From Candidatus Micrarchaeota archaeon (GTDB lineage: Archaea > Micrarchaeota > Micrarchaeia > Anstonellales > Bilamarchaeaceae), in assembly GCA_018304385.1 (NCBI GenBank), contig JAGVWJ010000009.1, positions 1 through 47,795 on the forward strand: 47,795 bases of DNA, in the 5' to 3' direction. The notes beneath the pieces were generated by a model. The model was given only the letters and a program-made list of their open reading frames with translations. It had not been told where the DNA came from and did not search any database. Of the stretch, positions 3,491-29,400 are shown piece by piece. A program made the position numbers and the translations under genes. Position 1 is the first letter of the stretch, and each line of letters starts with the position of its first letter.

Positions 3491-6400
3491 ATGGCAGAAG
3501 ATCCAATTGCAAGATTAAGGCAGCTTCGCGCTGCGCAAACTGAAGACCCACTTGCAAAACTTAGAAGACTTGCAGGAAAAGGCGGAGAAATAGCAGCAGC
3601 AAAGCCTGCTCCAGAACCAGCTGCAGATGTTAAACCACCTGCTAGCGCCCCAGCACTACAGCCAGTTCCTACAGCAGTAACTGAATTAGCACCAACTTAT
3701 AGATATAATGAAAAAAGTGCTGATACACTCTCAACTGAATTACTAAAGGCAATAATCCTAGATATAAATGATCGCAATTTGGGAACAGCATTAAGGGCTG
3801 TTGAAAAAATAGGAAAGTTCGATAAAGGTATTATACTAGTTTTAATAGATCAAATTGAAACAGATCCACGCTTTACTTCTTTGGAAGTCGCAGTAAAGCG
3901 TGCATTAGGAGAATTGAAAGCTGCTAAAGCACCAACTTACAAATATACTAATGACGATATTGCTCTAGCTGTAAGCGAAAAAAACGCAACCTTATTGCAA
4001 GAAATAATTCTTGACAAAGAAAATCGCAGCGAACAAACTGCATTAGCAGCAATTGAGGCATTAAAAACAAACCCACCACCAAAACAGGCATTAGAATTTT
4101 TTCGTGCGCTTGTTGTAGATGCGCGTTACATTAATTTAGAGCAAAATGTACTTGATAGTATTCTTACTGCAAGAGGGGAATTAAGAGCACTTGTACCTCC
4201 ATCAGAGGATACATCACCAAAATACAGATATCCAGAGGTTCAAAGGGCTTTTGGAAAAAAGGATTTGGAACAATTAGAAGGTCTTGTTAGAGAATATAAA
4301 ACTATTACAGATGCAATAGCATTAGAAGCAGTTCATGCACTTGAAGACATTGGTAAATCAGGCGAAATGGAAGCCTTAAGATCATTAAGAAGGCTTAGAA
4401 TGAATAGTCAAATAACGATGAATAGAAATTCAGTTGTTGTTCGAGCAATTGCAGATGCAATGGAAAATATAGTTAAGGCAACCCATTATACTGAAGAAAA
4501 TGTAAGAGAAGCAGTTGAACGTGGAACATTTAGCGCATTATCTTCGATTATTCTTGGAGAAGCAAGGCCAAGAGAAGTTGCAGTAGCACTTGCAGCCATA
4601 AAAGCACTTAAGGAAAATACTCCAATGGATGTTGCACTTAGAGAATTAAGAAAGGTTAGGTCAGATCCGAGCTTTAATGGTTTAGATATAACTGAACGTG
4701 CACATGTTGAATGGGCAATTAGTAATTTAGAAAGAGTTGGTGGAGAACTAGCAGGATTAGTATTAGCTGGTGCAGAAGCAAGAAGAGAAACACATGCAAA
4801 CGTTATCGCAAAGGCAGAAGACTTGAATACATTAGTTGTATATGCGCAAATGGAGATTGAGGGCCAGGGCGAAGCTGATGCAAAACTAGCAATAGATAAA
4901 ATAAAGGGATTGGAAGCATCATTCTTAGATACTGATGCAATATTACTTGAGGTTTCTGAATATCACAAAGGGAAAAATGACGGGCTTGCAGAATATGCAA
5001 GGGCTGCTTATTTAGAAATAACTTCAGTTTCCAATATCTATCAAATGGAAGGCGCAAATGCATTAGTTGATTTATGTTTAAAAGATGAAACTTCAGAAGC
5101 AAGAAAAAGAGAAGTAGTAGAATTTCTTGCTGGGGAAAAAGATCGTGATGCGCTTAAAGATATATATATGAAAACCTTTGGCGCTTTAGAAGAAACAGTA
5201 ACTGCAGCTATAGCAAAGATTGATCTTGAAGGAATAAAAAATGCTGAGGAACGTGCACAGGAAGGCAATACGAATGCATTCGTTGATCTAGCAAATAGTG
5301 CAAGAATGAGTCCGTTCCCATTATCAGAAGATAATGCTAAAGAAGCAATATCTGCATTAGAACGATTGGCAAACGCTAATGTATCAAAAGAAGACATAGT
5401 CTATGAACTAGAGCGTATTGCACGCACTCATAGTAAACATGATCCACCTAGATCAGAACTAGCACGTTTGGCAAGAGAAGCACATACAAGATTATCAGCA
5501 GTTCCAAGTGCTCCAAGAGTCACACAAGAATTAGAAGCAGTAGATATTCTAGATGAAGCGCCCGCAGAAGAAACACCAGCACGATTAAGACCTGCAATTT
5601 CTGATAATCCAATTTATCGAGAGGCATTAGATTTATTAGCACAAGATACTACGCAAGGTGATGCAAGAGCAGAAACTCGCGCGATAAGATTAGAAAGAGA
5701 AGGACATTTTGCTGAAGCAGCTGATATTTGTGAACGATTAGGAAAAAATGATGATGCAGAAAGAATAAGAAGAAATATACCAGAGGCTAAAGTACCAGCA
5801 ATTTCAGATAATCCTACTTATAGAAGAGCATTAGAATTTTTAGCACAAGATACTTCTCGCGATGATTATGAAGCTGGAAGATTAGCCAGACAATTAGAAG
5901 GAGAAGAATTTTTAGCAGAAGCAGCAGATCTTTATGAACGATTAGGAAAAAATGATGATGCAGAAAGAATAAGAAGAAAAATAGGTGTACCAGAAGCAGA
6001 AGTTCCATCACTGGCTCCAGTAGTTGAAAGAGGGCCAACGTTTGGGTCAGGTCCAAGACCAGCAGAAGAGCGGCTGCCTCCTCCACCTTCAGTTATGCCG
6101 CGACCTCCGCCTTGGCAACCAGTAGCTTTACCAGGCATGATACCTCCAAGGACAGAGGCTGGAGAATTTTCAGCTGTTGGATTAGAAGACGAATATGCGC
6201 GTTCAGGTTCTGGCCCATTAGTTAGAAGATTCGGAACTGCAAGCACTGAAGAGCAAACAGCAATTCTTAATTTACTCGCAAGAAGAAAAGATCGTGATGC
6301 ACTTGTAAATTGTGCGCAGCCATTATGGGGAACTGATGGGCAACAATATGAAAATGTAGAGGAAAAACTAGATGAAGTGGATGCAGCAAAACTTACAGGA

Positions 6401-8158
6401 CTAGAGCAACAATATAAAGATGGGAATGCTGATGCACTTGATCATATTGCAACATTTGCTGGCAGAGACTATTATGATTGCATATCCCAAAGAACAAATC
6501 GTTTAGCTATAGAAACATTGGAAAGGTTAGAAGCACTTGAAAAATTACACGCAATTTCAAAATCAGAATATGCAACACCAGTAACCAGTGATAATGCAGA
6601 GGCAGCATTTGGCAGAGTTCTTGAAACAACTATGGCTAGAGTAGAAGCAGATATAAAATCACGTGATGAAGCAAGATTCAAACATGGCACTGCAAGATTA
6701 CGAGAATTGAATCAGCGCTATCCTGGTGCAGTTAGACCATATTTAAATAAAATTTTACTTGACTTCCCTCCTGGGGAAGCAGCATTAATTTCTGCAAAAT
6801 TAGTAACACAAGAGGATATTCAACAGGCTGCAAGAGAGGTTAATACAGAATATTTGGCAGATGTTGCTACAAACAAACATGTTGCAGAAGAACTTAGATA
6901 CAGTGCACTTAGAAGCCTATTTGCAATTGCAGATAGACATTCTAATGAAGATACTAAGGTAAATGCAATATCCGCAATAGGAGCGGTTCTGAAAAAATGC
7001 GATAGCGTTATGTTCGAAGAAGGTTTAACAAATCTAGATCGAATCAAGAATGGATTTACTATAGAAAGAGCCATATTAGATCACTTAGCTTATGTTTTTA
7101 CAGATATTGCAGTAAATGCAACTGTTAACAAAGAGGGAAAAAGACCAAAAATAGTTGAAAACATATATGAAAGTTGCAGGAGTTTCAGAGAAACTGAAAC
7201 TACTGAGCTTGATGTTTTTTCTAGAGCGCTAGCAGGAATAGCAATGGAATATGATTACGCATATGAAAAATTAGAAAGATTATTTACTGATGTAAGAAAT
7301 GTTAACGGAAAAGAGATTATCCTTGTCCATCTTGAGAAAGTATCAGAAAATGCAATAAGCCAAGGTATAAAGGATAAAGCAAATGAATTCCTAGCAACTG
7401 TTTATGAAGGAGAATTAGTACACCTTTTTGAAAGATATCTGCCTAAGAAGGAAAGAGAAAAAGCAAATAGGGAGAATATCTTAAAAAGAAATGTAAATGC
7501 ATGGGCAAAGACAGTTAACCCTGCATATGATCAAGGTCCTTCATTAGTTGAAAGAAAAAACATTCTAATGCAAGCATTGGGGATAGCAATGGAACAAGGA
7601 AATAAAGAGCTACTTATTGAATTGCCAAGCGCTACAGAACATATTAATTCTTCAAATAATGAAACGCGAGCTCAGGCAGCAAAGGAATTTAGAAAAATAG
7701 CAAAAAAAGTTCCAGAAGGATGGAGAGCGGCAATTCAAAACATGCTATTAAAAACTGCAGTTGAAGAGCGCATTGGACCTGTTGCCTTTGAAATGATAAA
7801 AACTATTGGTGTAATAGGCGACTTGGATGCAATTAAAGCATTACCCGAAGTAAAAACACATCACATGGCGCTAGCTTATGAAATTGATAAAGCAATTGAT
7901 AAGATAGAAAAACGATTAACAAGAGAGAATGCAGGTGGAAGCTTTTATAACAAGCCTGCAGCATGGGCAGCATATGCAACTGAAGCAAGCGTATTAGCAG
8001 GAAGTGCATTCGCAACAACAATAAATCCAGTTGTGGGCATTGGACTTGCATTATTAGGTAGTGCTATACCTGCAATAGTATTACGAATAGGAAAAAGAAA
8101 CTATAACGAAAAACACAAACCAGGAAAAGGAAAAGGTGATACTGATGAAGCTGCCTAA
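3491..8158 (+). CDS. 1555 aa HEAT/TPR-like repeat protein with C-terminal membrane anchor
   Basis: Four ~80-95 aa P(T/K)Y(R/K)Y-type repeats, two 68 aa tandem repeats, Pro-rich linker, HEAT-like C-terminal region (ETRAQAAKEFRKI...IKTIGVIGDLDAIKAL), hydrophobic tail VVGIGLALLGSAIPAIVL followed by basic residues. Confidence 0.8.
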   Translation: MAEDPIARLRQLRAAQTEDPLAKLRRLAGKGGEIAAAKPAPEPAADVKPPASAPALQPVPTAVTELAPTYRYNEKSADTLSTELLKAIILDINDRNLGTALRAVEKIGKFDKGIILVLIDQIETDPRFTSLEVAVKRALGELKAAKAPTYKYTNDDIALAVSEKNATLLQEIILDKENRSEQTALAAIEALKTNPPPKQALEFFRALVVDARYINLEQNVLDSILTARGELRALVPPSEDTSPKYRYPEVQRAFGKKDLEQLEGLVREYKTITDAIALEAVHALEDIGKSGEMEALRSLRRLRMNSQITMNRNSVVVRAIADAMENIVKATHYTEENVREAVERGTFSALSSIILGEARPREVAVALAAIKALKENTPMDVALRELRKVRSDPSFNGLDITERAHVEWAISNLERVGGELAGLVLAGAEARRETHANVIAKAEDLNTLVVYAQMEIEGQGEADAKLAIDKIKGLEASFLDTDAILLEVSEYHKGKNDGLAEYARAAYLEITSVSNIYQMEGANALVDLCLKDETSEARKREVVEFLAGEKDRDALKDIYMKTFGALEETVTAAIAKIDLEGIKNAEERAQEGNTNAFVDLANSARMSPFPLSEDNAKEAISALERLANANVSKEDIVYELERIARTHSKHDPPRSELARLAREAHTRLSAVPSAPRVTQELEAVDILDEAPAEETPARLRPAISDNPIYREALDLLAQDTTQGDARAETRAIRLEREGHFAEAADICERLGKNDDAERIRRNIPEAKVPAISDNPTYRRALEFLAQDTSRDDYEAGRLARQLEGEEFLAEAADLYERLGKNDDAERIRRKIGVPEAEVPSLAPVVERGPTFGSGPRPAEERLPPPPSVMPRPPPWQPVALPGMIPPRTEAGEFSAVGLEDEYARSGSGPLVRRFGTASTEEQTAILNLLARRKDRDALVNCAQPLWGTDGQQYENVEEKLDEVDAAKLTGLEQQYKDGNADALDHIATFAGRDYYDCISQRTNRLAIETLERLEALEKLHAISKSEYATPVTSDNAEAAFGRVLETTMARVEADIKSRDEARFKHGTARLRELNQRYPGAVRPYLNKILLDFPPGEAALISAKLVTQEDIQQAAREVNTEYLADVATNKHVAEELRYSALRSLFAIADRHSNEDTKVNAISAIGAVLKKCDSVMFEEGLTNLDRIKNGFTIERAILDHLAYVFTDIAVNATVNKEGKRPKIVENIYESCRSFRETETTELDVFSRALAGIAMEYDYAYEKLERLFTDVRNVNGKEIILVHLEKVSENAISQGIKDKANEFLATVYEGELVHLFERYLPKKEREKANRENILKRNVNAWAKTVNPAYDQGPSLVERKNILMQALGIAMEQGNKELLIELPSATEHINSSNNETRAQAAKEFRKIAKKVPEGWRAAIQNMLLKTAVEERIGPVAFEMIKTIGVIGDLDAIKALPEVKTHHMALAYEIDKAIDKIEKRLTRENAGGSFYNKPAAWAAYATEASVLAGSAFATTINPVVGIGLALLGSAIPAIVLRIGKRNYNEKHKPGKGKGDTDEAA
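5591..5998 (+). repeat. Intragenic tandem duplication, 2 x 204 nt (68 aa)
   Basis: Units start at 5591 and 5795 (PAISDNP); 45 nt exact identity between 5731-5775 and 5935-5979. Confidence 0.95.
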
Positions 8159-9416
8159 ACAAGTTTCATATTTACCAACCAGAGCACGTGGAGTGTTAGT
8201 TGCTACTAATGCGATATTTCTAAGCCTCGGATTACTAAGTATTGCTGCAATGCGTAAACCAGCACCAGATAGAATTGCAGCGCCACAAGCAGTTGTAGTA
8301 ACAGAAGATAATGGACAGCAAGCAAGAGAAACTGCTAAAGATCATGTAGAAAAACTAGAATCAGAAGGTAAATTATACGAGGCTGCCATTGTTTACATTG
8401 AAGCTAATGATATCTCAAATGCAAAAAGATTAGCAGATAAACTAGCTGAAAATGGAGATAAACGAGCAAATGAGATATATGAAAAATTTAGAAGATTAGG
8501 GATACCAACAATTCCAATTCAACCAGCAACAATAGAAGATATGGGTGGACCAACTGCCAGACAAGCAGCAGAGTTTCGCTTACAAGCAAGCAATGCAGAA
8601 AAGAATGGGGATCTTGCAACAGCAGCAACACGATGGTACGCTGCAGGTACACTAGTTGATAAAGCAAATGCAAAAATATGCGCTGATAAATACGCAGATG
8701 AAGCACAAGCAGAAGCAAATCTTACGGTTAAGGCTAGTATGTTGGAAAAAGCAGTTAGCACTTACAGAGCAATAGGTGATGAAGGAAAAGCAGCAGGATT
8801 AGAGATTATACTAGAAACATTAAAGAAAAGCCCAGAATACTTAGAAAATATGGGTAAAAAACTTGAGGCAGCGCACGCTTATTTAGATAAAAAAGATGCT
8901 GCTAATGCCAATAGATTAAGAAATGAACTAGCAGGTAAGGCAAAAACGCGAAAGGATAGAGAAGATGTTGCTGGGTTGGATAGACGCCTTAGCGAATTAG
9001 GTGTACTAATTCCATTACAACCTTGGAATATAGAACCAGACAAAAAACCAAAAGCAACACAGCCAAGGGCTAAACCAGATAGGGTTGAGAGGCCAAAACC
9101 ACCTGAAGAAGTAGCACCACCAGCGCCATTTAATGCAAATGATTATCGTACCAATCAAGCAAAACCAGTTTATGAAAGACCATTGGCTCTTTTATTAACT
9201 AGATATAGAAATGATGGAAAATTCGGAGATGCAACGAGCATTACTATTAGATTTACAATAGGAACAAATGGAAAAGCAAAGAATGCTACTGCTGAATTAA
9301 ATGGTGCAGAACTACCCGATAGATTCCAGGCAGAATTTGAAAGGGCACTTGCACCATTAAGATTTCCAAAACCAGCTGAAGAAGTAGGTGTAACACTACA
9401 ACCAAAACTTAAATAA
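8145..9416 (+). CDS. Membrane-anchored TPR-like protein with Pro/Lys-rich linker and C-terminal TonB-C/AgmX-PglI-like domain
   Basis: Start ATG 8145 after GGTGAT (track start GTG 8136). N-terminal TM VLVATNAIFLSLGLLSIAAM; TPR-like helices; linker PDKKPKATQPRAKPDRVERPKPPEEVAPPAP; C-terminus ITIRFTIGTNGKAKNA...FERALAPLRFPKPAEEVGVTLQPKLK. Confidence 0.65.
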   Translation: MKLPKQVSYLPTRARGVLVATNAIFLSLGLLSIAAMRKPAPDRIAAPQAVVVTEDNGQQARETAKDHVEKLESEGKLYEAAIVYIEANDISNAKRLADKLAENGDKRANEIYEKFRRLGIPTIPIQPATIEDMGGPTARQAAEFRLQASNAEKNGDLATAATRWYAAGTLVDKANAKICADKYADEAQAEANLTVKASMLEKAVSTYRAIGDEGKAAGLEIILETLKKSPEYLENMGKKLEAAHAYLDKKDAANANRLRNELAGKAKTRKDREDVAGLDRRLSELGVLIPLQPWNIEPDKKPKATQPRAKPDRVERPKPPEEVAPPAPFNANDYRTNQAKPVYERPLALLLTRYRNDGKFGDATSITIRFTIGTNGKAKNATAELNGAELPDRFQAEFERALAPLRFPKPAEEVGVTLQPKLK

Positions 9417-9437
9417 GTTCCATGTTAACATCTATTT

Positions 9438-10070
9438 ATGATAAAATACATCTTCTTTGATATAGATAATACACTTTTTCCTACTAGCGAATTTGCACAG
9501 CTCGCTCGCAAAAATGCAATACGCGCAATGATTGAACTTGGCTTGCAGTTTAATGCAGATGAGTTATATACAAAATTGCTAAAAATAATAGAAAGGCTTG
9601 GCTCAAATTCTGATCAGCATTTTAATGAATTACTAAGAGAATTAAAAGTCCAGCGACCAGAAAGATTTATTGCAGCAGCAGTTGCAGCATATCATAATAC
9701 AAAAACAAGCATACTACCTTATCCAGAGGTACCACGCGTGCTTTTGGCATTGCGTGAACATGGATATAAATTATATGTAGCAACCAACGGAAATACAATA
9801 AAACAATGGGATAAGCTGATTCGCCTGGGCATTGCACTTTATTTCGAGGATGTTTTTGTTTCAGAAGAAATAGGAAAAGAAAAAAGCAAAGAATTCTTTG
9901 ATAAAGTTTTATCAAACCTAAAAATAAAGCCAAATGAATGTGTTATGATTGGGGATAAAGAAGATAAGGATATAGTTCCAGCTAAGGCGACGGGCATGCA
10001 TGCAATAAAGCGAGGCAACAATGGAATTAATGATTTTTCGGATCTCTTAGATATACTTAAAAAACTATGA
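9438..10070 (+). CDS. HAD-superfamily subfamily IA hydrolase (archaeal TIGR02253-like)
   Basis: FFDIDNTL motif I, VATNG motif II, K...K motif III, MIGDKEDKDI motif IV. Confidence 0.9.
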   Translation: MIKYIFFDIDNTLFPTSEFAQLARKNAIRAMIELGLQFNADELYTKLLKIIERLGSNSDQHFNELLRELKVQRPERFIAAAVAAYHNTKTSILPYPEVPRVLLALREHGYKLYVATNGNTIKQWDKLIRLGIALYFEDVFVSEEIGKEKSKEFFDKVLSNLKIKPNECVMIGDKEDKDIVPAKATGMHAIKRGNNGINDFSDLLDILKKL

Positions 10071-10092
10071 CAACAAGTAATTATTTGATATT

Positions 10093-10956
10093 ATGCATTC
10101 TCGATTATTATTAGTATTTGGATTTGTATTCTTGCTTTTCGCCTTTGGATGTGGTGGAGGCGGTGGCGGAGCAACAAGTTGCACCACTGACAAGCAATGC
10201 AAATCATGGCAATTTTGTAATATAGATAAAAAAGCATGCCAAACAAAGGTTGGCTTCTGCGATAAAGAAGCAGATTGTAATGACACACTCTTATTATGCA
10301 ATTCTAATAACCATTTGTGTGATTATAAACCAGACAAATGCCGCGTAACAAGCGATTGTGAAAGCTGGCAGATTTGTGGTGGTGTAAATAATACGTGCAT
10401 AGCAGGACAAGGATTTTGCGCAAGTAATGACCAATGCGATCCAAATTTTGAATATTGTAATCCAACAATGCATAAATGCGGACCAAAACCGGGTTTATGT
10501 AATACTAATCTAGATTGCCAAGGATACGAAAGATGCAATATAGATTTAAAGAAATGCGTTCCGCTTGAAGGTAGGTGCAGCGATGATGGCAATTGCGAAA
10601 CATGGCAGATATGTGATGCAAAAACAAACAGATGCAAACCTAAGAAAGATTTCTGCGGAAACGACGGGGATTGCAGTAAATGGCAAAGATGCGATCTAGA
10701 AAACAAACAATGCGTAGCACAACAAGGTTATTGTGATCTTGACAACCAATGCGCCGAATGGGAATACTGCGATGGGAAAGGAAATCATCGCTGCAAAGCA
10801 AGGCGTGGATTCTGTTCAAGCAATACTGATTGTGGAAACTGGGAGATATGTAATGGTGTAACACATACATGCAAGGCAAAGGTAGGATCTTGTTCTAGTG
10901 ATCGTGATTGCGTAAGCGGGGAAGTTTGTGATGAGGCAACACACAAGTGCAAGTAG
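10093..10956 (+). CDS. Cys-rich repeat lipoprotein (10 x ~26 aa repeats, 4 Cys each)
   Basis: Signal peptide ending in lipobox FAFG|C, Gly6 linker, then ten repeats of the type C-x5-C-x5/6-C-x6/7-C-x4-G, often with W/Y before the third Cys. Confidence 0.85.
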   Translation: MHSRLLLVFGFVFLLFAFGCGGGGGGATSCTTDKQCKSWQFCNIDKKACQTKVGFCDKEADCNDTLLLCNSNNHLCDYKPDKCRVTSDCESWQICGGVNNTCIAGQGFCASNDQCDPNFEYCNPTMHKCGPKPGLCNTNLDCQGYERCNIDLKKCVPLEGRCSDDGNCETWQICDAKTNRCKPKKDFCGNDGDCSKWQRCDLENKQCVAQQGYCDLDNQCAEWEYCDGKGNHRCKARRGFCSSNTDCGNWEICNGVTHTCKAKVGSCSSDRDCVSGEVCDEATHKCK

Positions 10957-11545
10957 AAGCAATGGACAATCAGAGATTAACCATGAGCTAGAGAGAAGAA
11001 GACGAATTTTTTCTGAGAAACCACCAAGAATAGATACAATGGGTGGATGCTATATGCCTATACCACACGCGATACTAGATAAAATATTAGATTTATTAGT
11101 AGTACAATTTGGAAACCGAGGTGTGTTTGTTGATGCTGGTTCTGGAGATGGACGCGTTATTGCAGCAGCATTTTCTCATGGATTCAGAAGATGTGTAGGT
11201 ATAGAGCTTGATACAAAAGTATTTGAAATGGGCAGAAGAAGATTGCTTCAATTTTTTGATGGTCGCATACCTTCTGGAATAAGAATGGTACGTGATGATT
11301 TTACACATGCTGAAAGTTATGGCCTAGATATTAGGGATATAAATTTAATTTATCATTTTATAAATCGTAGGCCTTTAGCAGAGTTAGTTAGGCTAATGGA
11401 AAGCGATGATTTTCGAAGCGCAAAACTTGTATTGGTAGATTTTAGCGGGCAAGAGCAATTCGACGGATTCGAGGCTGTTTTTAGGGCGATTATAGACGAT
11501 GGCGGCAGACCCCATTATGCAACTGTCTATCAGAGAATGGGATGA
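10931..11545 (+). CDS. Class I SAM-dependent methyltransferase (DOT1-like fold); start uncertain (10931 or 11039)
   Basis: VFVDAGSGDGRV motif I, CVGIELD motif II, MVRDDF motif III. Confidence 0.75.
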   Translation: MRQHTSASRSNGQSEINHELERRRRIFSEKPPRIDTMGGCYMPIPHAILDKILDLLVVQFGNRGVFVDAGSGDGRVIAAAFSHGFRRCVGIELDTKVFEMGRRRLLQFFDGRIPSGIRMVRDDFTHAESYGLDIRDINLIYHFINRRPLAELVRLMESDDFRSAKLVLVDFSGQEQFDGFEAVFRAIIDDGGRPHYATVYQRMG

Positions 11546-11547
11546 TA

Positions 11548-12381
11548 ATGCTTGTTCGTTTTGGTCCTGCTGGAATACCTATGCAATGTAAAGGCACTAG
11601 CACGCTTGATGGCGTGCAATGCTGCGCAGAACTCGGCCTAAAAGCAATGGAGATGTCATTTGTACGCGGTGTACGCATGCGCGATGAAATGGCTGCAGAA
11701 ATAAAAAAAACTGCAACTAAACTGGATATCTCACTTAGCTCGCACGCGCCTTATTTTATAAATCTCTGCTCTAGCGAAGAAAAAACAGTAAAGAATTCAT
11801 TAAGGCATATATACGAGGCTAGCCGTGCAACATTTTTAGCTGGTGGAAGTATAACTGCGATTCATCCTGGATTTTACCAAGGTAAAAGCAAAGAGGATGC
11901 ATATAACCTTGCAAAAAAAAGATTTCAAGAAGTTGCACAGCAGCTAAGGCAAGAAAAAATAAAATGTTACCTGGGTGCTGAAAACGTAGGGAAAAAATCC
12001 CAATTCGGAGGCTTTGAAGAGATATTAAAATTAGCTAATGAAATAGATATGATAAAACCAGTAATAGATTGCTCGCACCTTGTTGCACGCGGAGATTTTC
12101 CATTAAAGAACGAAAATGATTATCGAAAACTATTTGCAATTTTGGAAAAAGAATTAGGTGATTATGTTAGGCATTTTCATTTCCAGTTTCAAGAGGTTGA
12201 GTATAGTGAAAAGGGCGAGCGCAACCATGTTGCTTTGGGAACAAATAATGATCCGCCTTATAAACCATTAATGAAGGTTATTGCAGAGAATTCATATGCT
12301 GGAACAATAATTAGTGAAAGCCCGTGGCCAGATGTGGATGCAAAAATAATGCAAGAAGAATATAATAAATTTAACTCATAA
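11548..12381 (+). CDS. nfo: Archaeal-type endonuclease IV / AP endonuclease family 2 TIM barrel
   Basis: RFGPAG N-terminus, SSHAPYFINL, IHPGFY, AENVGKKSQFG, VIDCSHL, ERNH, IISESP. Confidence 0.85.
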   Translation: MLVRFGPAGIPMQCKGTSTLDGVQCCAELGLKAMEMSFVRGVRMRDEMAAEIKKTATKLDISLSSHAPYFINLCSSEEKTVKNSLRHIYEASRATFLAGGSITAIHPGFYQGKSKEDAYNLAKKRFQEVAQQLRQEKIKCYLGAENVGKKSQFGGFEEILKLANEIDMIKPVIDCSHLVARGDFPLKNENDYRKLFAILEKELGDYVRHFHFQFQEVEYSEKGERNHVALGTNNDPPYKPLMKVIAENSYAGTIISESPWPDVDAKIMQEEYNKFNS

Positions 12382-12407
12382 CCCAAAACTCAGAACTCAA
12401 AACAGTG
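12373..12407 (+). repeat. Heptamer mini-array (AACTCAN-like x5)
   Basis: aactcat aacccaa aactcag aactcaa aacagtg at the nfo / next-gene junction. Confidence 0.7.
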
Positions 12408-12413
12408 AATACT

Positions 12414-13307
12414 ATGCTAATTGAATATTTAGAACAATCTGCTGCAGACTTACGTGCACTAGAGCAGAGGCTACTAGGCATGGCTAATCAGTATAGAATG
12501 TTTATGGACCGAGATATAAGAGAGCAAATGGAAGAATTAAAAAAAGAGATTAGAAAAAATCAGGCTAAGATTCTTAGCAAGGTATATGCTCACATGCAAG
12601 AATTTGTTTTACTGAAAAGGCATTTCCCAGGCTTTTTCCAGGTTTTAAAAGAAGATCAATATCTATCAAGAGTAATTAACAGAATAGAATGGCTCTTTGA
12701 ATTTAAAAAATTGGATGCTGCAACCTGTCAGGTTGAATTATTAAAAATAAAAGAACAGCGAAAGCAATTGAGAGAAGCAAAGGAGTTTTTGAAAAAATGG
12801 GTAGGAAAAGTAGATAAAAAATCAATGGAAGCAACATGGCCTATTTTAAAGGACCAAATAGCCGATAAGATGGATAGGGATGAGGTTCGAGGAATAATAA
12901 AAAATAAGAATAAGGAATTAAGAAGAAAAGGATGGTTGTTGATTATTAATGAACCTTTTATAATAAGTGTTTTGAACAGATTATTTGAAAAACTAAAAAA
13001 AATCAGAGAGCAAGAGGCAGAAATTAAACTAGAAATAGAACGATTAAAAGGAAAAAATATATATGCAAGAAGCGATGCAGAGAAAAAACTAAAGTTAGTG
13101 ACAAAAGAAAGAAAAAAGATGGAAAGAAAATGCGAGCATGTATTACTTGCTAATTATGAATATTTGTTAAAGATAAAAAAGCAAAGGCCAACGTGGCGCG
13201 ATAAAACTGCAAATATGTTCATGCAAAACCTGATAGAAAAAATTAACATAAATCCAATTAATGAGAAATTATGGATTGAGGAACTGAATAAGAAATTGAA
13301 TAGCTAA
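12414..13307 (+). CDS. Lys/Glu-rich coiled-coil hypothetical protein
   Basis: 300 aa ORF (track start GTG 12405), helical charged composition, no recognised motif. Confidence 0.7.
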   Translation: MLIEYLEQSAADLRALEQRLLGMANQYRMFMDRDIREQMEELKKEIRKNQAKILSKVYAHMQEFVLLKRHFPGFFQVLKEDQYLSRVINRIEWLFEFKKLDAATCQVELLKIKEQRKQLREAKEFLKKWVGKVDKKSMEATWPILKDQIADKMDRDEVRGIIKNKNKELRRKGWLLIINEPFIISVLNRLFEKLKKIREQEAEIKLEIERLKGKNIYARSDAEKKLKLVTKERKKMERKCEHVLLANYEYLLKIKKQRPTWRDKTANMFMQNLIEKININPINEKLWIEELNKKLNS

Positions 13308-13819
13308 GTAGGAATACTATCTATCTTGCTTTCCAATGCTTTCTTTATCTTGCTGTTCAATAATTTTTCTTCCTTAAAGAATATTGAATAGAAATTTTTT
13401 ATTAGTTGTTTTGCCTTCTTTTTATCTAAAAAATAAGCTCTCTGTAGGTATTCTTTTCCCAATGGATTATTAAGAAACATATAACAGATTGCAATATAGA
13501 AAAATGTGCTTACATCCTTTTTATCAAGCTCTGCTGCTTTTTCTAGCTGTTCGACAGCCTGTTCGAAATCGTACATTTCCATGTGCGCCATACCTTTTAT
13601 CTTATAATATGCTGGCTTTTGGCTTATCCATAACGCATGCTCAAAGTATTCGTGTGCTGTGTCGTAATTTTTTAGTTTTAAAGAAACGAGCCCGCGCAGA
13701 TACCATAACTCATCATTGTTTTTATTCTTGCCAATAAGCGTGTTAAGAGCTGTGGCTGCCTCTTTGAACTGCTCTGCGTTTAATAGGCTCTTTGCCTGTT
13801 CCAAAGTATATTCTGCCAT
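13304..13819 (-). CDS. Tetratricopeptide repeat protein
   Basis: Canonical TPR units (WYLRGLVSLKLKNYDTAHEYFEHAL; YKIKGMAHMEMYDFEQAVEQLEKAAELD). Confidence 0.85.
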   Translation of the reverse strand: MAEYTLEQAKSLLNAEQFKEAATALNTLIGKNKNNDELWYLRGLVSLKLKNYDTAHEYFEHALWISQKPAYYKIKGMAHMEMYDFEQAVEQLEKAAELDKKDVSTFFYIAICYMFLNNPLGKEYLQRAYFLDKKKAKQLIKNFYSIFFKEEKLLNSKIKKALESKIDSIPT

Positions 13820-13916
13820 AAAAAATATTTAGTCTAGAAGCGTTTTTAAATTAGCACAACGCTTATAAACTCTACTATATAAAATAAATTTGCCAAAAAT
13901 GTATATAAGTGGGATT

Positions 13917-14270
13917 ATGTTTGTTTATCAACTTGCGTTTAAACCAAAGGAAGAAGAAAGAAAAGCAGCATTTGTACCGTCTCTTGTTTTAGGCCCTGTG
14001 GAAAATAATTTCTTTGCTAATCTTAGAACAAATTTATTTAATTGTAATTCTGAAGGATGTTTTGTTGGGCCAATGGGTACAGCGAAAGGCGGGCTTCAAC
14101 TTAGAATAACAGAGAATGTCCAGATTGCTCTTGGAAGATTCAATACAGAAACTGGTACTGCTTATGGAGCTGGTGTTAGATTTGATGAACGTGCAATGGA
14201 TAGACTCGCTGGCGCTTTTTCTGATTTATTCAAAGACCTCGCACCAAAACCAAAGCAAAAAGAGATTTGA
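13917..14270 (+). CDS. Small hypothetical protein rich in predicted beta-hairpins
   Basis: Likely start ATG 13917 (track TTG 13890). GGLQLRITENVQIALGRF and TAYGAGVRFD segments. Confidence 0.6.
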   Translation: MFVYQLAFKPKEEERKAAFVPSLVLGPVENNFFANLRTNLFNCNSEGCFVGPMGTAKGGLQLRITENVQIALGRFNTETGTAYGAGVRFDERAMDRLAGAFSDLFKDLAPKPKQKEI

Positions 14271-15224
14271 TCACTCGAATTCTATAGTTCCTGGCGGCTT
14301 ATTTGTTATATCATAAACCACACGACCAACCTCTCTTATCTCATTTGTAATCCTAGTTGATATTTTCTGCAAAACCTTCCAGTCAATTTGCGAGAAATTA
14401 GCAGTCATGCCATCTAAGCTGCGCACTGCGCGAATTACAACTATGTATTGGTAAGCGCGTTCATCGCCGCGCACGCCAACTGCTTTTGTAGGTAGCAATG
14501 CAGCGAAGTATTGCCACGGAAGCTCGATTTCATTACGCTTAGCTGCGCTTTCAATCTCTTCTTCAGCAATTTCACCAGCATCTTGTAAAATTTTTATCTT
14601 TTCTTCTGTAATCTCACCGACAATGCGCACTGCTAATGCTGGGCCAGGAAATGGCTGGCGTGAATATATATAATCAGGCAAACCAAGTTTTTTTGCAACC
14701 TCGCGCACCTCATGCTTATAAATCTCGCGCAAAGGCTCGCAAAGCTTTAGATGCATTTTCTCAGGTAGGCCACCAACATTATGATGGCTTTTTATTTTAT
14801 CGCGCGTACCGCCACCGCTTTCTATCCAGTCTGGTGCAATTGTTCCTTGAATTAGATACGCTACATTATCTTTTTTCGCCTCTTCTTCAAAAATACGTAT
14901 AAACAGTTCGCCAATTATTTTTCTCTTTTGCTCTGGGTCAGTTACATTACGTAGCGATGTGAGAAATTTTTTCCCTGCATCTATTACTTTTAGATTAATG
15001 TCTACTTTTTTAGCTGCCTCACATACCTTTGCGCGCTCACCTTTCCGCATTAAGCCAGTATCAACAAAAATAGCAAATAAATTAGGAGTTGCATGCGCAG
15101 CCAGCGCTGCAGCAGTAAAACTATCAACTCCACCTGATAGCGCAATTATTGCTTTTTCCTTGCCAACTGTATCTTTTATGTATCGCTTTGCTTCTTCAAT
15201 AAATTTTTCAGCATTAAATGACAA
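14271..15224 (-). CDS. guaAB: GMP synthase (glutamine-hydrolysing) subunit B, ATP pyrophosphatase
   Basis: SGGVDS PP-loop, IQGTIAPDWIES, IKSHHNVGGLP, PFPGPALAVRI, YDITNKPPGTIEFE; TTG start with GGTGA SD. Confidence 0.97.
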   Translation of the reverse strand: MSFNAEKFIEEAKRYIKDTVGKEKAIIALSGGVDSFTAAALAAHATPNLFAIFVDTGLMRKGERAKVCEAAKKVDINLKVIDAGKKFLTSLRNVTDPEQKRKIIGELFIRIFEEEAKKDNVAYLIQGTIAPDWIESGGGTRDKIKSHHNVGGLPEKMHLKLCEPLREIYKHEVREVAKKLGLPDYIYSRQPFPGPALAVRIVGEITEEKIKILQDAGEIAEEEIESAAKRNEIELPWQYFAALLPTKAVGVRGDERAYQYIVVIRAVRSLDGMTANFSQIDWKVLQKISTRITNEIREVGRVVYDITNKPPGTIEFE

Positions 15225-23817: not shown

Positions 23818-24423
23818 ATGTTAGATTCTACTACCTCGAAGATATACGATGCGATTAAAGGATCGCCTTGGGGGATCGCAACATTAGACGTATTAACAAG
23901 CTTACGTTTATGCGATGATTTCACATTAAAAACTATTTTAAGCAGGCTAAATAAGGCAAAAAAAATCATCAGGTTAAAGCGCGGGGTTTATTCAACATAC
24001 CCACTAATGGATGGATTTGCAGCCGCGCAGGCTAGTTTTAACGGTTATCTTGGTTTTTCTACTGCACTTTATTTGCACAAACTTACTACAGAATTCCCAT
24101 TTACTGTTTTTGTGGTGACAGTAAATACATCAAAATTAAAAAAAATCGGCCAGATTGAATTCAAGGCTGTTGCGCTTAAAGAAAAGGCAATAGGTTTAGA
24201 ATACCAAGGTAATTACGTTGTTTCCACTCGCGCAAAGACCCTGTTTGACTGTATTTATATTCCAGATTACGGAGTAGAAAAGGAAAAACTAATAAATGTG
24301 TTTCAAGAAGCGCAATTAACTAACAAAGAATGGAAAGAATTTGAGTATTATGTTAAAAAATTTGTAAGAGAAAAAAATAGAAGACGGTTTGAAGAAATAA
24401 AAAGGAGAATTAGAAAAGGCTGA
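23818..24423 (+). CDS. abiEi: Type IV TA antitoxin, AbiEi-like (wHTH + AbiEi C-terminal domain)
   Basis: RLKRGVY, YLGFSTALYLHKL, FTVFVVT, VSTRAKTLFDC; directly upstream of an AbiEii gene. Confidence 0.8.
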   Translation: MLDSTTSKIYDAIKGSPWGIATLDVLTSLRLCDDFTLKTILSRLNKAKKIIRLKRGVYSTYPLMDGFAAAQASFNGYLGFSTALYLHKLTTEFPFTVFVVTVNTSKLKKIGQIEFKAVALKEKAIGLEYQGNYVVSTRAKTLFDCIYIPDYGVEKEKLINVFQEAQLTNKEWKEFEYYVKKFVREKNRRRFEEIKRRIRKG

Positions 24424-24427
24424 AAAT

Positions 24428-25213
24428 ATGGAAGTAAATTTAGAGATATGCAAGGCTATTGCTATTACGGTTGGCTTACCACTTAAGTTTGTGATAAAGG
24501 AGTTTCATATCTTTAATGTTCTTTGGCAGGTAACGGATTTTGCAGCTAAGCACAACAAAAAACTAATCTTTAAAGGCGGAACAGCATTAAGCAAGGCGTA
24601 TCTGGGAAAAGCGCAGCGTTTCTCTGAAGATATTGACTTTGATCTAGATGAGAATCCAGATGCAGTAATGCAATTCTCAAAACAACTCGCACAAAGTATT
24701 AAAGAATATGTTATTACAGATTTTAGAAAGGTCTACAAAACTATCCAGTTCTATTGTAAGTATGATAGCTCATTAATAGGTGAAAGGGACCATGTAAGGG
24801 TAGATATTGCAAGTAAAAAAATAATAACATCACAACCACCTATTACAAAATATGCGAATTCTGAATTCACAAATGGTGGTGTAAGTGTTTATGTATATAG
24901 CGTCGAAGATTTATTAGCGCGAAAGATGAACGCCCTTTGTGATAGAACTGAGGGAAAGGATGTTTACGATGTATATATGGGACTTCCACTCTGCAGTAGC
25001 ATGGATAAAGCAATTGTTCAAATGCTAAAATCTGAGGATAAAAAGGAAACAGCAAAAGAGTTTCTTCAAAAAACCATTGAACATGTAAAAAAGGCTGATT
25101 ATAAAAAACTTAGAAACCTGACAAATCCATTTATACCAGTTGCATATCGTCCGAAGGACTGGTTAGAGGTTAAGGATGACTTAGTAATGAAGCTAGAAAA
25201 TCTTAATGTGTAA
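24428..25213 (+). CDS. abiEii: Type IV TA toxin, AbiEii nucleotidyltransferase (DUF1814)
   Basis: LIFKGGTAL, RFSEDIDF, LARKMNAL, KDVYDV. Confidence 0.9.
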   Translation: MEVNLEICKAIAITVGLPLKFVIKEFHIFNVLWQVTDFAAKHNKKLIFKGGTALSKAYLGKAQRFSEDIDFDLDENPDAVMQFSKQLAQSIKEYVITDFRKVYKTIQFYCKYDSSLIGERDHVRVDIASKKIITSQPPITKYANSEFTNGGVSVYVYSVEDLLARKMNALCDRTEGKDVYDVYMGLPLCSSMDKAIVQMLKSEDKKETAKEFLQKTIEHVKKADYKKLRNLTNPFIPVAYRPKDWLEVKDDLVMKLENLNV

Positions 25214-25453
25214 TAATTATATTTCTTAGTTGCATTTAACCCTAAAAACTTAATGTTTTGTTAAGTTTCTAATGAAAAACTCAACCAACAATAACACATC
25301 TGATCATTGCTCATGGTCGATGGCTCAAGGCTGTTACATTATTTTAATAGTTTTTGTGTCTGAATATTATAATATATGAGCACCTATTTTAGAAAAATTA
25401 TCGCATTAGTGCTAGCTGGACACTTTACATTTGCACCTGCCAAAGGCATTGCA

Positions 25454-25490
25454 CAAGTGCTAGGGGGCGGGCCCCCTAGCGCAACCCCCA
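25454..25490 (-). repeat. GC-rich hairpin element, copy 1 (REP/RPE-like), intergenic
   Basis: Reverse complement TGGGGGTTGCGCTAGGGGG-CCCG-CCCCCTAGCACTTG; 9 bp perfect stem; first 18 nt identical to 43963-43980. Confidence 0.8.
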
Positions 25491-25504
25491 ATGAATTTAA
25501 TAGA

Positions 25505-25512
25505 TTTAAAAA
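25505..25512 (+). promoter_or_regulatory. TATA box TTTAAAAA, 22 nt upstream of ATG 25535
   Basis: Read directly; supports 25535 rather than 25376 as the start. Confidence 0.55.
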
Positions 25513-25534
25513 CTCTTCAGGACAAGATAGTAAT

Positions 25535-26410
25535 ATGGCGAATGGTACGGCAGTCAAAGAGAGGCGTTTTGACTTAGCAGAGTTAGAAGGTACATACACT
25601 AGAATAATGGCAGCGAGCAAACCAGACATTCCTTCAAATTTATCTTTATACCAACAAGGCCAGCTTCTAACATATTGTTTCTTCCAGTTCTATAAACTAC
25701 CACCAAATGAAAGACAAAATAGTGAAGATGGAAAAAAGTTATATGCTATAATTACAAAACTTTATGAAAATAGTAATCAAACACAATTTAAAAAAGGGCT
25801 TTGGGACGTAGAACTTCAAAAAGAAATATTTAGTAGGGATCCCTCATTCGCTAGTTATAAGGACTCAATGGATAAATACGGAGAATACATAGAGAAATGG
25901 GAAAAGGAAGGAAGAATGCCTTTGCCTCTTCTTACTTATTTGCTTGAAGGGCATGATATAACAGAACCTACATTAAAACCAATTCCAGTTAGAGTAGAAA
26001 ACCCAACACTAGTAGATGATGCAACATTAGAGGATTTTAGCAATCGTATAGGGGCAGGTACCTCATTTGTAAAATCAAGAGATGAAAAACTAAAAAAGTT
26101 AAACAAAAAATTTAGAGAATTATTTGAGGTAAATGAAGAAATAGCATCAGATATTCTAAAGGCAGTGCTAACTGCATACTGGTTATCAACTAGGCAGGAT
26201 CACGCATTATTTATAGATTGGTTTAATCAAGCAGATAAGAAAGTGTTAGCAACGCAGGTAACTACGCTTACGCGTGCAAAAACACCATTCACACCTCATA
26301 AACCAGTTCAAAGAATGTTTGATGACTGGAAAAAGAAATATGAGGCAGCAGAAGCTGAAAAAAGCGAAGAACAACGGGCAATGGAAGTTATATGGCAAAA
26401 AAGTTACTGA
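25535..26410 (+). CDS. 291 aa helical hypothetical protein, possibly the N-terminal part of a frameshifted ~1604 aa protein
   Basis: MANG start after TATA; overlaps the next ORF, which lacks a well-placed ATG. Confidence 0.7.
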   Translation: MANGTAVKERRFDLAELEGTYTRIMAASKPDIPSNLSLYQQGQLLTYCFFQFYKLPPNERQNSEDGKKLYAIITKLYENSNQTQFKKGLWDVELQKEIFSRDPSFASYKDSMDKYGEYIEKWEKEGRMPLPLLTYLLEGHDITEPTLKPIPVRVENPTLVDDATLEDFSNRIGAGTSFVKSRDEKLKKLNKKFRELFEVNEEIASDILKAVLTAYWLSTRQDHALFIDWFNQADKKVLATQVTTLTRAKTPFTPHKPVQRMFDDWKKKYEAAEAEKSEEQRAMEVIWQKSY

Positions 26411-29400
26411 TAATGGTGTAGAAAAAATAGTTGGCGGATTTGAGAATGAGCCAACTAGCCAGGCATTTGATTATATCTCGCATAGATTAGCTTATCTTCG
26501 TTTAAGAGAAGAATATTTGAAAAAATTTGGAGTAGACGAAAGAGAAGAACTAGCTGCCATTAAGAAAGACCATGAAATTCTAGAAAAATGGTTAGATCAG
26601 CTTAATATTCGCACAGATGAAGGAACACTAGAAAGCAGACTTAATATTGTAAGAGCAGGACTGGTAGTTATACAAGGGTCATATTTCTCAGCAAGCTTGG
26701 AGAATCTTTCAGTTGTTGATAATCTTAGAAATTTGCAAGCAACAAATAGAGAATTATATGAAATATATAAGAAATTTGTATTAAAGATTGATGAAAGAAC
26801 CGGCAGATTCTTTGTTGGCATAAATCCAAATGCAAGGGATTTCTTAAACCAGCTAACATATATAATCGCAGATAGATTTAGCCAGGAAAATGTAAGACAA
26901 GGTAAAGAAATCTGGAGTAGAGAAGGCTATCATGATTCCGCATTGCCTACAATACAGCAGCAAAAAGAGGGCTCGCTAGAGGGTTTAACAGGCCTAGGTG
27001 TTAGCGAGCTAAAGCCATTGCTTGCAGTTATGTTCCTTGATTATTATAAGACAGCAGCCAATAGCGGTGTACTAAGTCCAGAAGAGAAAAAACTAGTTGC
27101 AACAACGCTAGCAAAGCTGTATTATATTGAGCCTTTATTAGCTGTAAAATACCTTGCTTCTATAAAACACGTAGCTGAAATCTGCATAGACAATCCTGGT
27201 GCATACTTCCAAGGATTAACTGCGTTGTCAGCCAGGATAGACACAGAGGTCGCACCTATTTACTCAACAGTAACACCTTTCCGCGTTGGACTTGATTTAA
27301 ACATTAGAAGGGTAATAAACAAACTGGACATGGCATTTGATGATATAATGGTAATAAGCGCTGGTGCGCTTGCCAGATTTACAAGATATACCTTACTTGA
27401 TAGAAATCTAGAGCTTAATTTAGGAAGGCCGCCACATGAGATTGTGCAAAAACCGCCAGGATATAAGTATCCACTTACGCTTGGCTTGGAAAGGAAATTA
27501 GGATTTGGGCCACCATATCCGTTTCCAAACTATTTGATTACTACACCTATAGTAAACCCAATATCCAGAGGCGCAGTAGTTAACGCATATCCATATGGAG
27601 GCGGTGTTCAATTGCCACAGCTAAGGCTTTACACCATGCCATCTGGCGCAGATGCAGTAAAGGCAAGCATGGAGTCATATTTATGGCCATCCCATCCAGT
27701 GCTTAACATAGCTGAATTTCTACCTGGTGCATATATATCGCCTCTAAGCGCTACGCAACTGGTTAATGAAATAAATCGTGCATTTATATCGCGATTAGCG
27801 CCAGGTTATGAATTCTCTCCAATTGGCGGTGGCGGTGCAATGGGATTAAGGGGCAGATCCACAGAGGCACAGACATTAGGAGAAATGTTTGAAGATGTAG
27901 AATGGGGCGGTGGCGGATTAGGCTCGATTATTACACCTACTGGCGGTATATCTGCTGGTGGTTTAGCTGATGGTAGATATTTATTTGCAGGCATGAGTGC
28001 AATTGGTGTGCCTATTGGCCACATACCATTTGCATCTGCAATTACAGCTGGAAAAGAAGGAAGAAAGAAAGAAGAAATAGGCATAGACAGCTTTGCTGGT
28101 GGTTACGAGCGCTTGGATGATGAATCAAAACGCTTGCTACTTGATTCTGTTAAAACAGCATGGGATCCAAATAATCCAAGTGAAACAATAATAACAGTGA
28201 ATAGACAGGAAAACGCTGAGGGCAAGGCATGGATGACTGCAAGATATTTCTACATAGATAAGGAAGGAACGATTTATGAATTAAAAGGCGGAACAAATGA
28301 TTTTGTAGAAATGCTTAATTACATGGCTGGTTATGGAGACAAAAACTTTAATACGCCTGCAACATATGCATGGAATATTGAGCCAGATATAGATCGTGGT
28401 GGTGGCGCATTAGCAATTGATATTGGCAAATATGCAGGCATGCTTCATATGCAGGCAGTACCATTCTTTACTAAACAGGGCGAGCCACAACCAATGTTAC
28501 TGGAATGGACACATGGAGATGCTTACACTGAAGATATTGAACCAGGAAAAACAAGAACCTATGAGCTCGTGCTCCCAGGTAAATGGCTAAAGCTAAAGCC
28601 ACCTGCTGCAGAAGGAGAAGAAAGAAAAGAACGAGAATATGTTATACAAGAGGGTATATTCACTTGGAGAACTGTTGAGGATGTGGATGCATGGGAAACC
28701 ACAGTTGGTGTTGGTTTAGGAACATCACCATCTGGTATGATTGGCCGTGGCGGCGTATTTAGAAAAGCAATGACACCAAAAACACCATGGGATCTATTTG
28801 GCTGGCAGCTAAAGGCACGCGGGGCAGGATTATATTACGAAATGGGCGCAACAAATTTAGAAGCACTAGCACTATTGCAAGAATCAGAAGAATCAAGAGA
28901 GTTTGTAGAAAATATCCATAGGATAGGTGTCACACTTTATGGCCAAGGCGAATTATCAAACAAAATGTTAATGGGCGCTTTAGCGCATGTTGTACCGCAG
29001 TTCACTACGCAAAACGGGGATTTTGAATTTGATCGAGCGCTTTGGCGATTCATAGGAACATTAAAGGCATTAGATGCGATTGGGAAGCTGGATATTGCAA
29101 GGATACAAGGACTAGACACTATGATGAATGATTACAATGGCCTCATGACAAATGTCCGCAGAAATCCAGCAGAAGCTGAAAGATTACTTAATAACTTTAG
29201 GGCGCAGAATGTTGAAAATATAAGAAGGGTATTTGATAATTATTACTTAGGAGTGCAGATTAACAGGGATATGTCTTTAGAATTTAATCTTTTGAGTAGA
29301 GAAGAGGGAGATTGGATTAGTAATTTCAAAAACCCTGAAACAATATATGGTAGATTCCTCTGGACATTTGGCAATGATTTCTGGCGTGCATTCTCATCTA

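Follow-up and report, generated by a model that had tools for sequence, protein, structure and literature searches.

A probable TonB-C/TolA-III-like domain on a membrane-anchored protein of a groundwater Micrarchaeota archaeon

C-terminal domains of the TonB/TolA type are regarded as envelope parts of diderm bacteria, and those of the textbook systems have a proton-driven stator as partner. Here, a protein with such a domain is described from an archaeal genome. It is encoded on contig JAGVWJ010000009.1 of the Candidatus Micrarchaeota archaeon assembly GCA_018304385.1, in a stretch of 47,795 nt (positions 1–47,795, + strand) that is called the window below. The protein, P0001, comprises 423 amino acids (aa) and combines a single N-terminal transmembrane (TM) anchor, helical hairpins, a proline-rich spacer and a C-terminal domain (residues 331–423) that is very probably a true member of the TonB-C/TolA-III superfamily. 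P0001 adds a new architecture to a known domain superfamily, in a host where it was not to be expected; no description of TonB-like proteins in DPANN archaea was found in the literature searched. An initial annotation, made from the letters of the window alone, had proposed this domain order and, in addition, a role in coupling an inner-membrane motor to outer-membrane barrels. The domain order was recovered by independent methods. The coupling role was not upheld: profiles of motors and receptors had no match in the 89.4%-complete host genome, the anchor lacks the expected histidine and the spacer is not conserved. Somewhat favored instead is that P0001 serves as a motor-less envelope tether or docking adaptor, fast-evolving, signal-anchored and translationally coupled to a giant, presumably cytoplasmic protein encoded directly upstream.

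Results

Profile and structure comparisons of the C-terminal domain

The NCBIfam model NF033768 ('myxo_SS_tail') describes the C-terminal domain of AgmX/PglI and has a curated cut-off of 40 bits. It was the best NCBIfam match of whole P0001 (E 2.5e-3) and the sole credible one. It was also the sole NCBIfam match of a 108-aa C-terminal fragment (E 2.9e-4, 20.9 bits) and of P0002, a homologue of P0001 (E 1.2e-3, 18.9 bits); neither reached the curated cut-off. In the six-frame translation of the host assembly (1.53 Mb, 65 contigs, 89.4% complete), NF033768 matched only the open reading frame (ORF) of P0001 (E 5.4e-4). Among 14 control genomes, matches at E ≤ 0.01 were obtained in E. coli and Bacteroides only; therefore, it is genomes encoding genuine TonB proteins that receive sub-threshold matches to this model at this level. 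The Pfam models TonB_C (PF03544) and TonB_2 (PF13103) did not match P0001 at E 1, nor the 108-aa fragment, P0002 or the host genome at E 10, and tonB_Cterm (TIGR01352) did not match P0001, the fragment, P0002 or the six-frame genome at E ≤ 10. Of the profile matches anticipated in the initial annotation, the one to the AgmX/PglI model was found, below its cut-off, and those to TonB_C and TonB_2 were not.

Better-scoring tails were obtained when 401 genomes of the phylum were scanned with NF033768, namely in four other Micrarchaeota (G253, G133, G146 and G134; 31–86 bits). Profile-profile comparison by hhalign related the P0001/P0002 alignment to these four tails with 89.9% probability (E 1.7e-6), from strand 1 to strand 3. 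The four-tail profile itself matched 14 TonB-family C-terminal domains among solved structures, with E values between 5e-5 and 2e-3 for 13 and of 0.044 for TonB2, and three of the four tails were matched by Pfam TonB_C. A hidden Markov model (HMM) of the four tail sequences ranked the P0001 ORF first among 8408 six-frame ORFs of the host, with an E value of 0.063.

The AlphaFold2 (AF2) model of P0001 was built on the two known sequences, P0001 and P0002, and had a mean pLDDT (the score predicted for the local distance difference test) of 68. Its C-terminal domain folds as helix-strand-strand-helix-strand, with residues 340–423 being compact (pLDDT 78–87), and carries the motifs quoted in the initial annotation. 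In Foldseek searches, the full-length model matched 6sly, the TonB C-terminal domain of H. pylori, with a probability of 1.00 and a template modelling score of 0.51; HasB (2m2k) was also matched. For a single-sequence model of the domain, the first 30 Foldseek matches were mostly TonB, HasB, FusB, TonB2 and TolA (E 0.007–0.6). The matches of Foldseek and VIA-align to C-terminal domains of TonB, HasB, FusB and TolA span the whole domain and include 6sly, 2m2k, 7zc8, 2gsk, 1u07 and 1xx3. Feature and structure neighbors of residues 325–423 in the ESM Atlas were Myxococcota tails and TonB_C clusters (template modelling scores of 0.56–0.70). Structure prediction returned the TonB-like fold that had been suggested from the letters, with TonB and TolA domains dominating the structural matches. 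Viral structures (BFVD) gave no match.

It is improbable that this resemblance is convergent or due to chance and that P0001 is just a helical membrane protein without relatives, capped by a small alpha/beta unit of a generic kind. The silent Pfam models and the E value of 0.063 of the tail HMM would fit such a protein, as would the VIA list for the domain, which is headed by unrelated folds. A phmmer search of the domain against PDB sequences gave antibody noise only (E about 1), and among 1.84 billion representatives the last 138 residues retrieved P0001 itself only. Against this, independent methods agree on one family: a profile HMM finds it in two homologues, profile-profile comparison points to it too, and so do two structure aligners run on two models as well as language-model features. 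The matches share one register and span the whole domain. Individually, these lines of evidence for the TonB-C/AgmX family are weak to moderate and none is strong, yet all agree. Within the superfamily, the domain is likely closest to the AgmX/PglI (GltJ/GltG) tail, as a divergent member.

Anchor, helical region and spacer

The N-terminal TM segment noted in the initial annotation was found by hydropathy as well as in the AF2 model (Table 1). It is preceded by K2, K5 and R13 within residues 1–14 and starts with R15. Asn22 is a polar anchor residue conserved in P0002, and His is absent from the anchor helix of both proteins. Residues 37–56 were predicted to be disordered, and residues 57–284 form 13 short helices arranged in hairpins. 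The two helical subdomains are closed by similar motifs, LGIPTIPIQP and LGVLIPLQP (residues 285–293). The KLESEGKLYEAA motif of the first subdomain is common to other Micrarchaeota membrane proteins, as seen from motif-level matches in four related genomes. The helices had been described as TPR-like. In the model they form hairpins; a possible relation to TPR proteins is suggested by weak Foldseek matches to Sec17/gamma-SNAP, LGN and KLC TPRs (E 0.017–0.1, template modelling scores ≤ 0.22), and the Pfam search of P0001 found no TPR family and no other family for the helical part.

In two related genomes, membrane proteins (L005, G095:C62, 946–1827; L006, G096:C7, 514–1824) were observed to share a module made up of a TM segment, a stretch rich in Pro, a short strand and a helical hairpin with KLESEGKIYEAG. 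The module corresponds to residues 36–106 of P0001, and both proteins lack a TonB-like tail.

The linker rich in PK/PE that had been placed at about 9020–9140 corresponds closely to the spacer, whose 46 residues include 26% Pro, 8 K/R and 6 D/E and were predicted to be disordered. The spacer of P0002 (alignment A1, columns ~300–355) is longer, rich in Arg, Glu and Ala and nearly free of Pro, and is possibly a single charged helix. If so, the spacer would be TonB-style in P0001 and TolA-style in P0002. The property kept between the two seems to be length and extension rather than proline.

Table 1. Positions in the window of the P0001 gene, its parts and the upstream giant gene.
Feature	Position	Strand	Basis
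ORF of the TonB-like anchor protein	8136/8145-9416	+	ORF list
Coding sequence of the 423-aa TonB-like anchor protein P0001	8145..9416	+	ORF list
Shine-Dalgarno-like GGTGAT	8134..8139	+	direct reading; 5 nt before the ATG at 8145; inside the last codons of the 1555-aa gene
Single TM anchor, residues 15-36	8187..8252	+	Kyte-Doolittle peak 2.12; AF2 helix 12-36
Helical-hairpin subdomain 1, residues 57-117, with KLESEGKLYEAA motif	8313..8495	+	AF2 helices
Inter-subdomain linker, residues 118-137, begins LGIPTIPIQP	8496..8555	+	pLDDT <50 at 119-134
Helical-hairpin subdomain 2, residues 138-284, TPR/SNAP-like	8556..8996	+	AF2 helices, pLDDT 70-85
Pro/Lys/Glu-rich extended spacer, residues 285-330	8997..9134	+	composition; AF2 disorder
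C-terminal TonB-C/TolA-III-like domain, AgmX/PglI-tail type, residues 331-423	9135..9413	+	
Upstream 1555-aa helical giant, candidate membrane partner	3491..8158	+	ORF list; no signal peptide
Putative hydrophobic hairpin at the giant's C-terminus, around residues 1488-1535, basic tail after	7952..8095	+	strong TM 1511-1535

Relatives in Micrarchaeota

A word-indexed search of 5.8 billion proteins yielded P0002 as the only homologue (55–59% identity), and no locus for P0002 was found in scans of genome and metagenome contigs. An order-wide search of 176 genomes gave only motif-level matches to the first helical hairpin, and two genomes of the same genus gave no match with the P0001 query. As judged from these searches, P0001 is nearly an orphan and appears to be lineage-specific.

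Tails related to its C-terminal domain occur sporadically among other Micrarchaeota, where the proteins that bear them are secreted or anchored. The tail of G253 comes after a TM segment that is preceded by about 180 residues without a signal; that of G146 lies behind a lipobox-like signal. As to the N-terminal parts, one archaeal tail protein is a lipoprotein, one comprises 779 aa and gave a weak transglutaminase-like match, and one has a disordered basic region with a TM segment. Like P0001, the tails in G253, G133, G146 and G134 belong to the same phylum, take the C-terminal position and occur in genomes without MotA/ExbB; they differ from P0001 in their N-terminal parts and in their gene neighborhoods.

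Two of these loci gave further observations. The tail in G134 (L010, G134:C61) lies on a contig of 2.9 kb with a GC content of 0.45 and scored 83–86 bits, with 72 bits for the GltG equivalog and a match to TIGR01352; it may be a bacterial contamination of a Micrarchaeota bin and not an archaeal gene. In G146 (L020, G146:C19), two small exported proteins are encoded side by side (2–715 and 728–1150), with a third lipoprotein after them. The lipobox-like signal and the NF033768 tail (30 bits) belong to the first; the second carries a signal peptide, and its end resembles a tail but has no profile match.

Orientation in the membrane

Of the arrangement expected for an AgmX/PglI tail outside the cytoplasm, a TM segment and a linker are present in P0001; its orientation was judged by a weak charge bias and by its relatives. 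With four basic residues flanking the TM segment on the N-terminal side and three on the C-terminal side, the positive-inside rule weakly favors an N-in orientation. An external C-terminal part is favored because of the TM segment in G253, the lipobox in G146 and the bacterial counterparts: the C-terminal domains of TonB, TolA, GltG and GltJ characterized so far are periplasmic (PMC11761067).

The inverse arrangement, with only the short N-terminus outside and the rest acting as a membrane-tethered scaffold in the cytoplasm alongside the two giants, likewise cytoplasmic, whose genes lie upstream, appears quite improbable. It would be in line with the small size of the flanking charge bias and with a soluble part that contains one Cys only and is rich in K, E and A like the giants, which have no signal. 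BLASTP of P0001 against the two upstream giants was not significant, although a short helical motif is common to P0001 and the 1555-aa giant (E 0.47), and this motif also occurs in related genomes, in membrane proteins with repeats that flank TM segments. In contrast, where the archaeal relatives are readable, the tail is found behind a signal, or behind a TM segment after a long cytoplasmic region, the bacterial domains named above are periplasmic, and the N-terminal flank is more basic than the C-terminal flank in both homologues.

Membership in a TonB system

Six features that define a TonB system were compared with P0001, and membership fails on five of them if the spacer, present in P0001 but replaced in P0002, is counted. 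The single N-terminal TM anchor is present. A Ser...His anchor motif, which in the anchor helix of E. coli TonB couples to ExbB/ExbD, was not found, nor was an above-threshold profile match to TonB_C, TonB_2 or tonB_Cterm, a stator, or receptors with a Plug domain and TonB box. The search for ExbB/ExbD/TolQR/MotA-like motors proposed in the initial annotation came out negative, with no match to MotA/ExbB (PF01618) or ExbD (PF02472) in the 89.4%-complete host genome; Plug (PF07715) and the TonB-dependent receptor (PF00593) were not matched there at E ≤ 0.1. MotA/ExbB was likewise not found in the four other tail-bearing Micrarchaeota or in a genome of the same genus, apart from one sub-threshold match of 21 bits.

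The barrel-like partners proposed are giant proteins whose genes begin 16 kb downstream of the P0001 gene, with unrelated genes between. For the giant at 25376–30350, all family-bearing neighbors in the ESM Atlas were outer-membrane barrels, at noise-level scores of 0.79; scores for the back half of the giant were ≤ 0.83. A complex prediction of residues 325–423 with residues 27–344 of the N-terminal ORF of the giant scored 0.02, which is evidence neither way. A link between P0001 and these giants is unlikely.

It is very unlikely that P0001 is a true energy transducer of the TonB type, in which an unrecognised or unassembled motor pulls the anchor and the domain engages a TonB-box-like strand of the barrel-like giants 16–31 kb downstream. 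Such a transducer would have the layout of P0001, which is that of TonB, and the conserved Asn22 could be its polar anchor residue; the barrel neighbors, at noise level, and the two membranes proposed for ARMAN cells (Comolli 2009, as cited in PMC4243693) would also fit. Set against it are the missing motor and receptor matches, the anchor without His, the spacer that is not conserved, the two same-genus genomes without a match and the distance of the P0001 gene from the giants. Moreover, the single membrane of the cultivated Ca. Micrarchaeum harzensis bears an S-layer (bioRxiv 10.1101/2021.04.28.441871). The 'monoderm' status of Micrarchaeota is debated.

Gene and host

The ATG of the P0001 gene overlaps the upstream gene for the 1555-aa giant (TAA at 8156–8158) by 14 nt. 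Because of this overlap, and because the Shine-Dalgarno-like sequence lies inside the end of the giant gene (Table 1), the two genes are probably translationally coupled. Identical copies of P0001 are recorded on 15 contigs of public assemblies. The gene is present in groundwater and soil metagenome runs of several studies; no RNA run is listed among the sequencing runs that contain it. Its GC content of 0.386 is close to that of the genome (0.365), and therefore gives no sign of recent transfer.

The initial annotation had spoken of an archaeal gene run, which agrees with the host genome (G000): it contains an archaeal small-subunit (SSU) ribosomal RNA (rRNA) match of 1268 bits and ribosomal protein L31e, and the neighboring gene at 14271–15224 is 68–89% identical to genes of Ca. 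Micrarchaeota metagenome-assembled genomes. On these grounds, the host is judged to be a groundwater Micrarchaeota archaeon. The SSU rRNA match (L002, G000:C3:28631–30388) spans 1758 bases. As the model has 1478 positions, the 16S gene of the host probably contains an insertion or an intron that adds about 280 bases. An Rfam scan of the window gave no match.

The upstream giant and other neighbors

The 1555-aa giant had no Pfam family. Its end (7952–8158) consists of a weaker Ala/Ser/Thr-rich hydrophobic stretch, an Asn-Pro turn, a strong TM segment and a Lys/Gly-rich basic tail, and looks like a membrane hairpin anchor.

In genome G116 of the same genus, the genes for an HAD hydrolase and a Cys-rich lipoprotein, which in the window lie downstream of the P0001 gene, are conserved and adjacent (73% and 64% identity). 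Four genes lie upstream of this pair at the syntenic site (L073, G116:C2:152000-166153, - strand, 8111-14152). The products of two of them close with double hydrophobic segments rich in Gly, Ser and Ala and with a basic tail, resembling the 1555-aa giant. The other two encode N-anchored proteins (415 aa, L073:11355–12599; 625 aa, L073:9417–11291) in the layout of P0001: a TM segment, helical repeats, a linker rich in Pro and a small C-terminus that looks alpha/beta. These two analogues had no NCBIfam match, and the 625-aa protein is likewise an orphan. BLASTP related P0001 to them over one hairpin only (E 2e-4); hhalign always placed the C-terminal domains in register, but with 0.7–9% probability, which is not significant. 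P0001 and the G116 analogues may thus form a rapidly diverging family bound to this locus.

Further observations concern the remainder of the window. The Cys-rich lipoprotein at 10093–10956, which is syntenic in G116 with 64% identity, matched DUF5885 (E 1.3e-9); this is the second domain type near the P0001 gene that is mostly known from Myxococcota-like bacteria. The genes at 23818–25213, inside a run of giant genes, are a probable type IV toxin-antitoxin pair: a 201-aa gene without a family, followed by the gene of an AbiEii nucleotidyltransferase toxin (E 1e-28). An archaeal prepilin/preflagellin peptidase (Peptidase_A24 and an archaeal C-terminal domain type II) is encoded at 40691–41545, directly after the second giant, and is followed by a GT2 glycosyltransferase with three TM segments.

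Discussion

For P0001 as an envelope tether or docking adaptor, we infer the following topology, binding mode, partner and pairing with the giant. The short basic N-terminus would lie in the cytoplasm, with the one TM helix as the anchor, and the helical subdomains, the spacer of about 45 residues and the 90-residue C-terminal domain would be outside the membrane. There, the C-terminal domain could capture an extended segment or a surface of an envelope partner, such as the S-layer or a secreted protein, possibly by strand addition as in the TonB and TolA domains. The 1555-aa giant would sit on the cytoplasmic side, with a putative membrane hairpin that may pack against the P0001 anchor. Anchor and hairpin together would then form a passive cross-membrane link in which a proton-driven motor is not involved. 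Since the TonB-like domains of GltG and GltJ dock on a periplasmic TPR-type protein and not on a TonB box (PMC11761067), docking without a classical receptor has a precedent.

There is only a very slim chance that the 1555-aa giant, as a cytoplasmic solenoid with a membrane hairpin, and P0001 form the core, in the membrane, of a device for coupling across the archaeal envelope. Such a device would be analogous to GltI/GltJ/GltG of the myxobacterial gliding machine or to TonB, and would link the cytoplasm to the barrel-like giants with a motor of a type other than ExbBD/TolQR or with none.

The archaeal cases without a motor suggest that the domain is an envelope docking module of a general kind, which can work without energy input. 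At 90 residues, and expressible alone, it offers a handle on the envelope composition of uncultivated symbionts, and it bears on the disputed number of membranes in Micrarchaeota, one with an S-layer or two. A connection to the barrel-like giants, if true, would point toward an outer-membrane-like system in archaea, which the present data do not show.

Among the known systems, TolA differs from P0001 in that the P0001 genome is without a match to TolQ/TolR (PF01618, PF02472), the helical part of P0001 consists of hairpin repeats instead of one long helix, and the TolA model TIGR02794 does not match P0001. TonB, like HasB and FusB, shares with P0001 the N-terminal TM anchor, the Pro/Lys/Glu-rich spacer and the alpha-beta-beta-alpha-beta C-terminal domain. 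In contrast to TonB, P0001 is without a Pfam or TIGRFAM TonB_C match and without the Ser/His anchor motif, contains a helical-repeat insert of 230 residues, and is encoded in a genome where ExbB/ExbD and a TonB-dependent receptor were not found.

GltJ (AgmX) and GltG (PglI) belong to the Agl-Glt gliding machinery of M. xanthus, where they reportedly work beside GltI, a large cytoplasmic TPR protein. P0001 differs from them in that its NF033768 score is half the curated cut-off, in lacking the FHA, zinc-ribbon and GYF cytoplasmic domains, and in having its helical repeats after the TM segment and not before it. Furthermore, its host is archaeal, and neither a motor of the AglRQS/TolQR type nor Glt partners were found in the host genome. 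On the other hand, the tail model of these two proteins, NF033768, is the best profile match of P0001, and with Foldseek E values near 1e-2 to 3gqs and 6sly (PMC11761067), GltG and GltJ match TonB-like structures with the same strength as P0001. The upstream neighbor of P0001, a giant helical protein without a signal peptide, compares with GltI beside GltG and GltJ.

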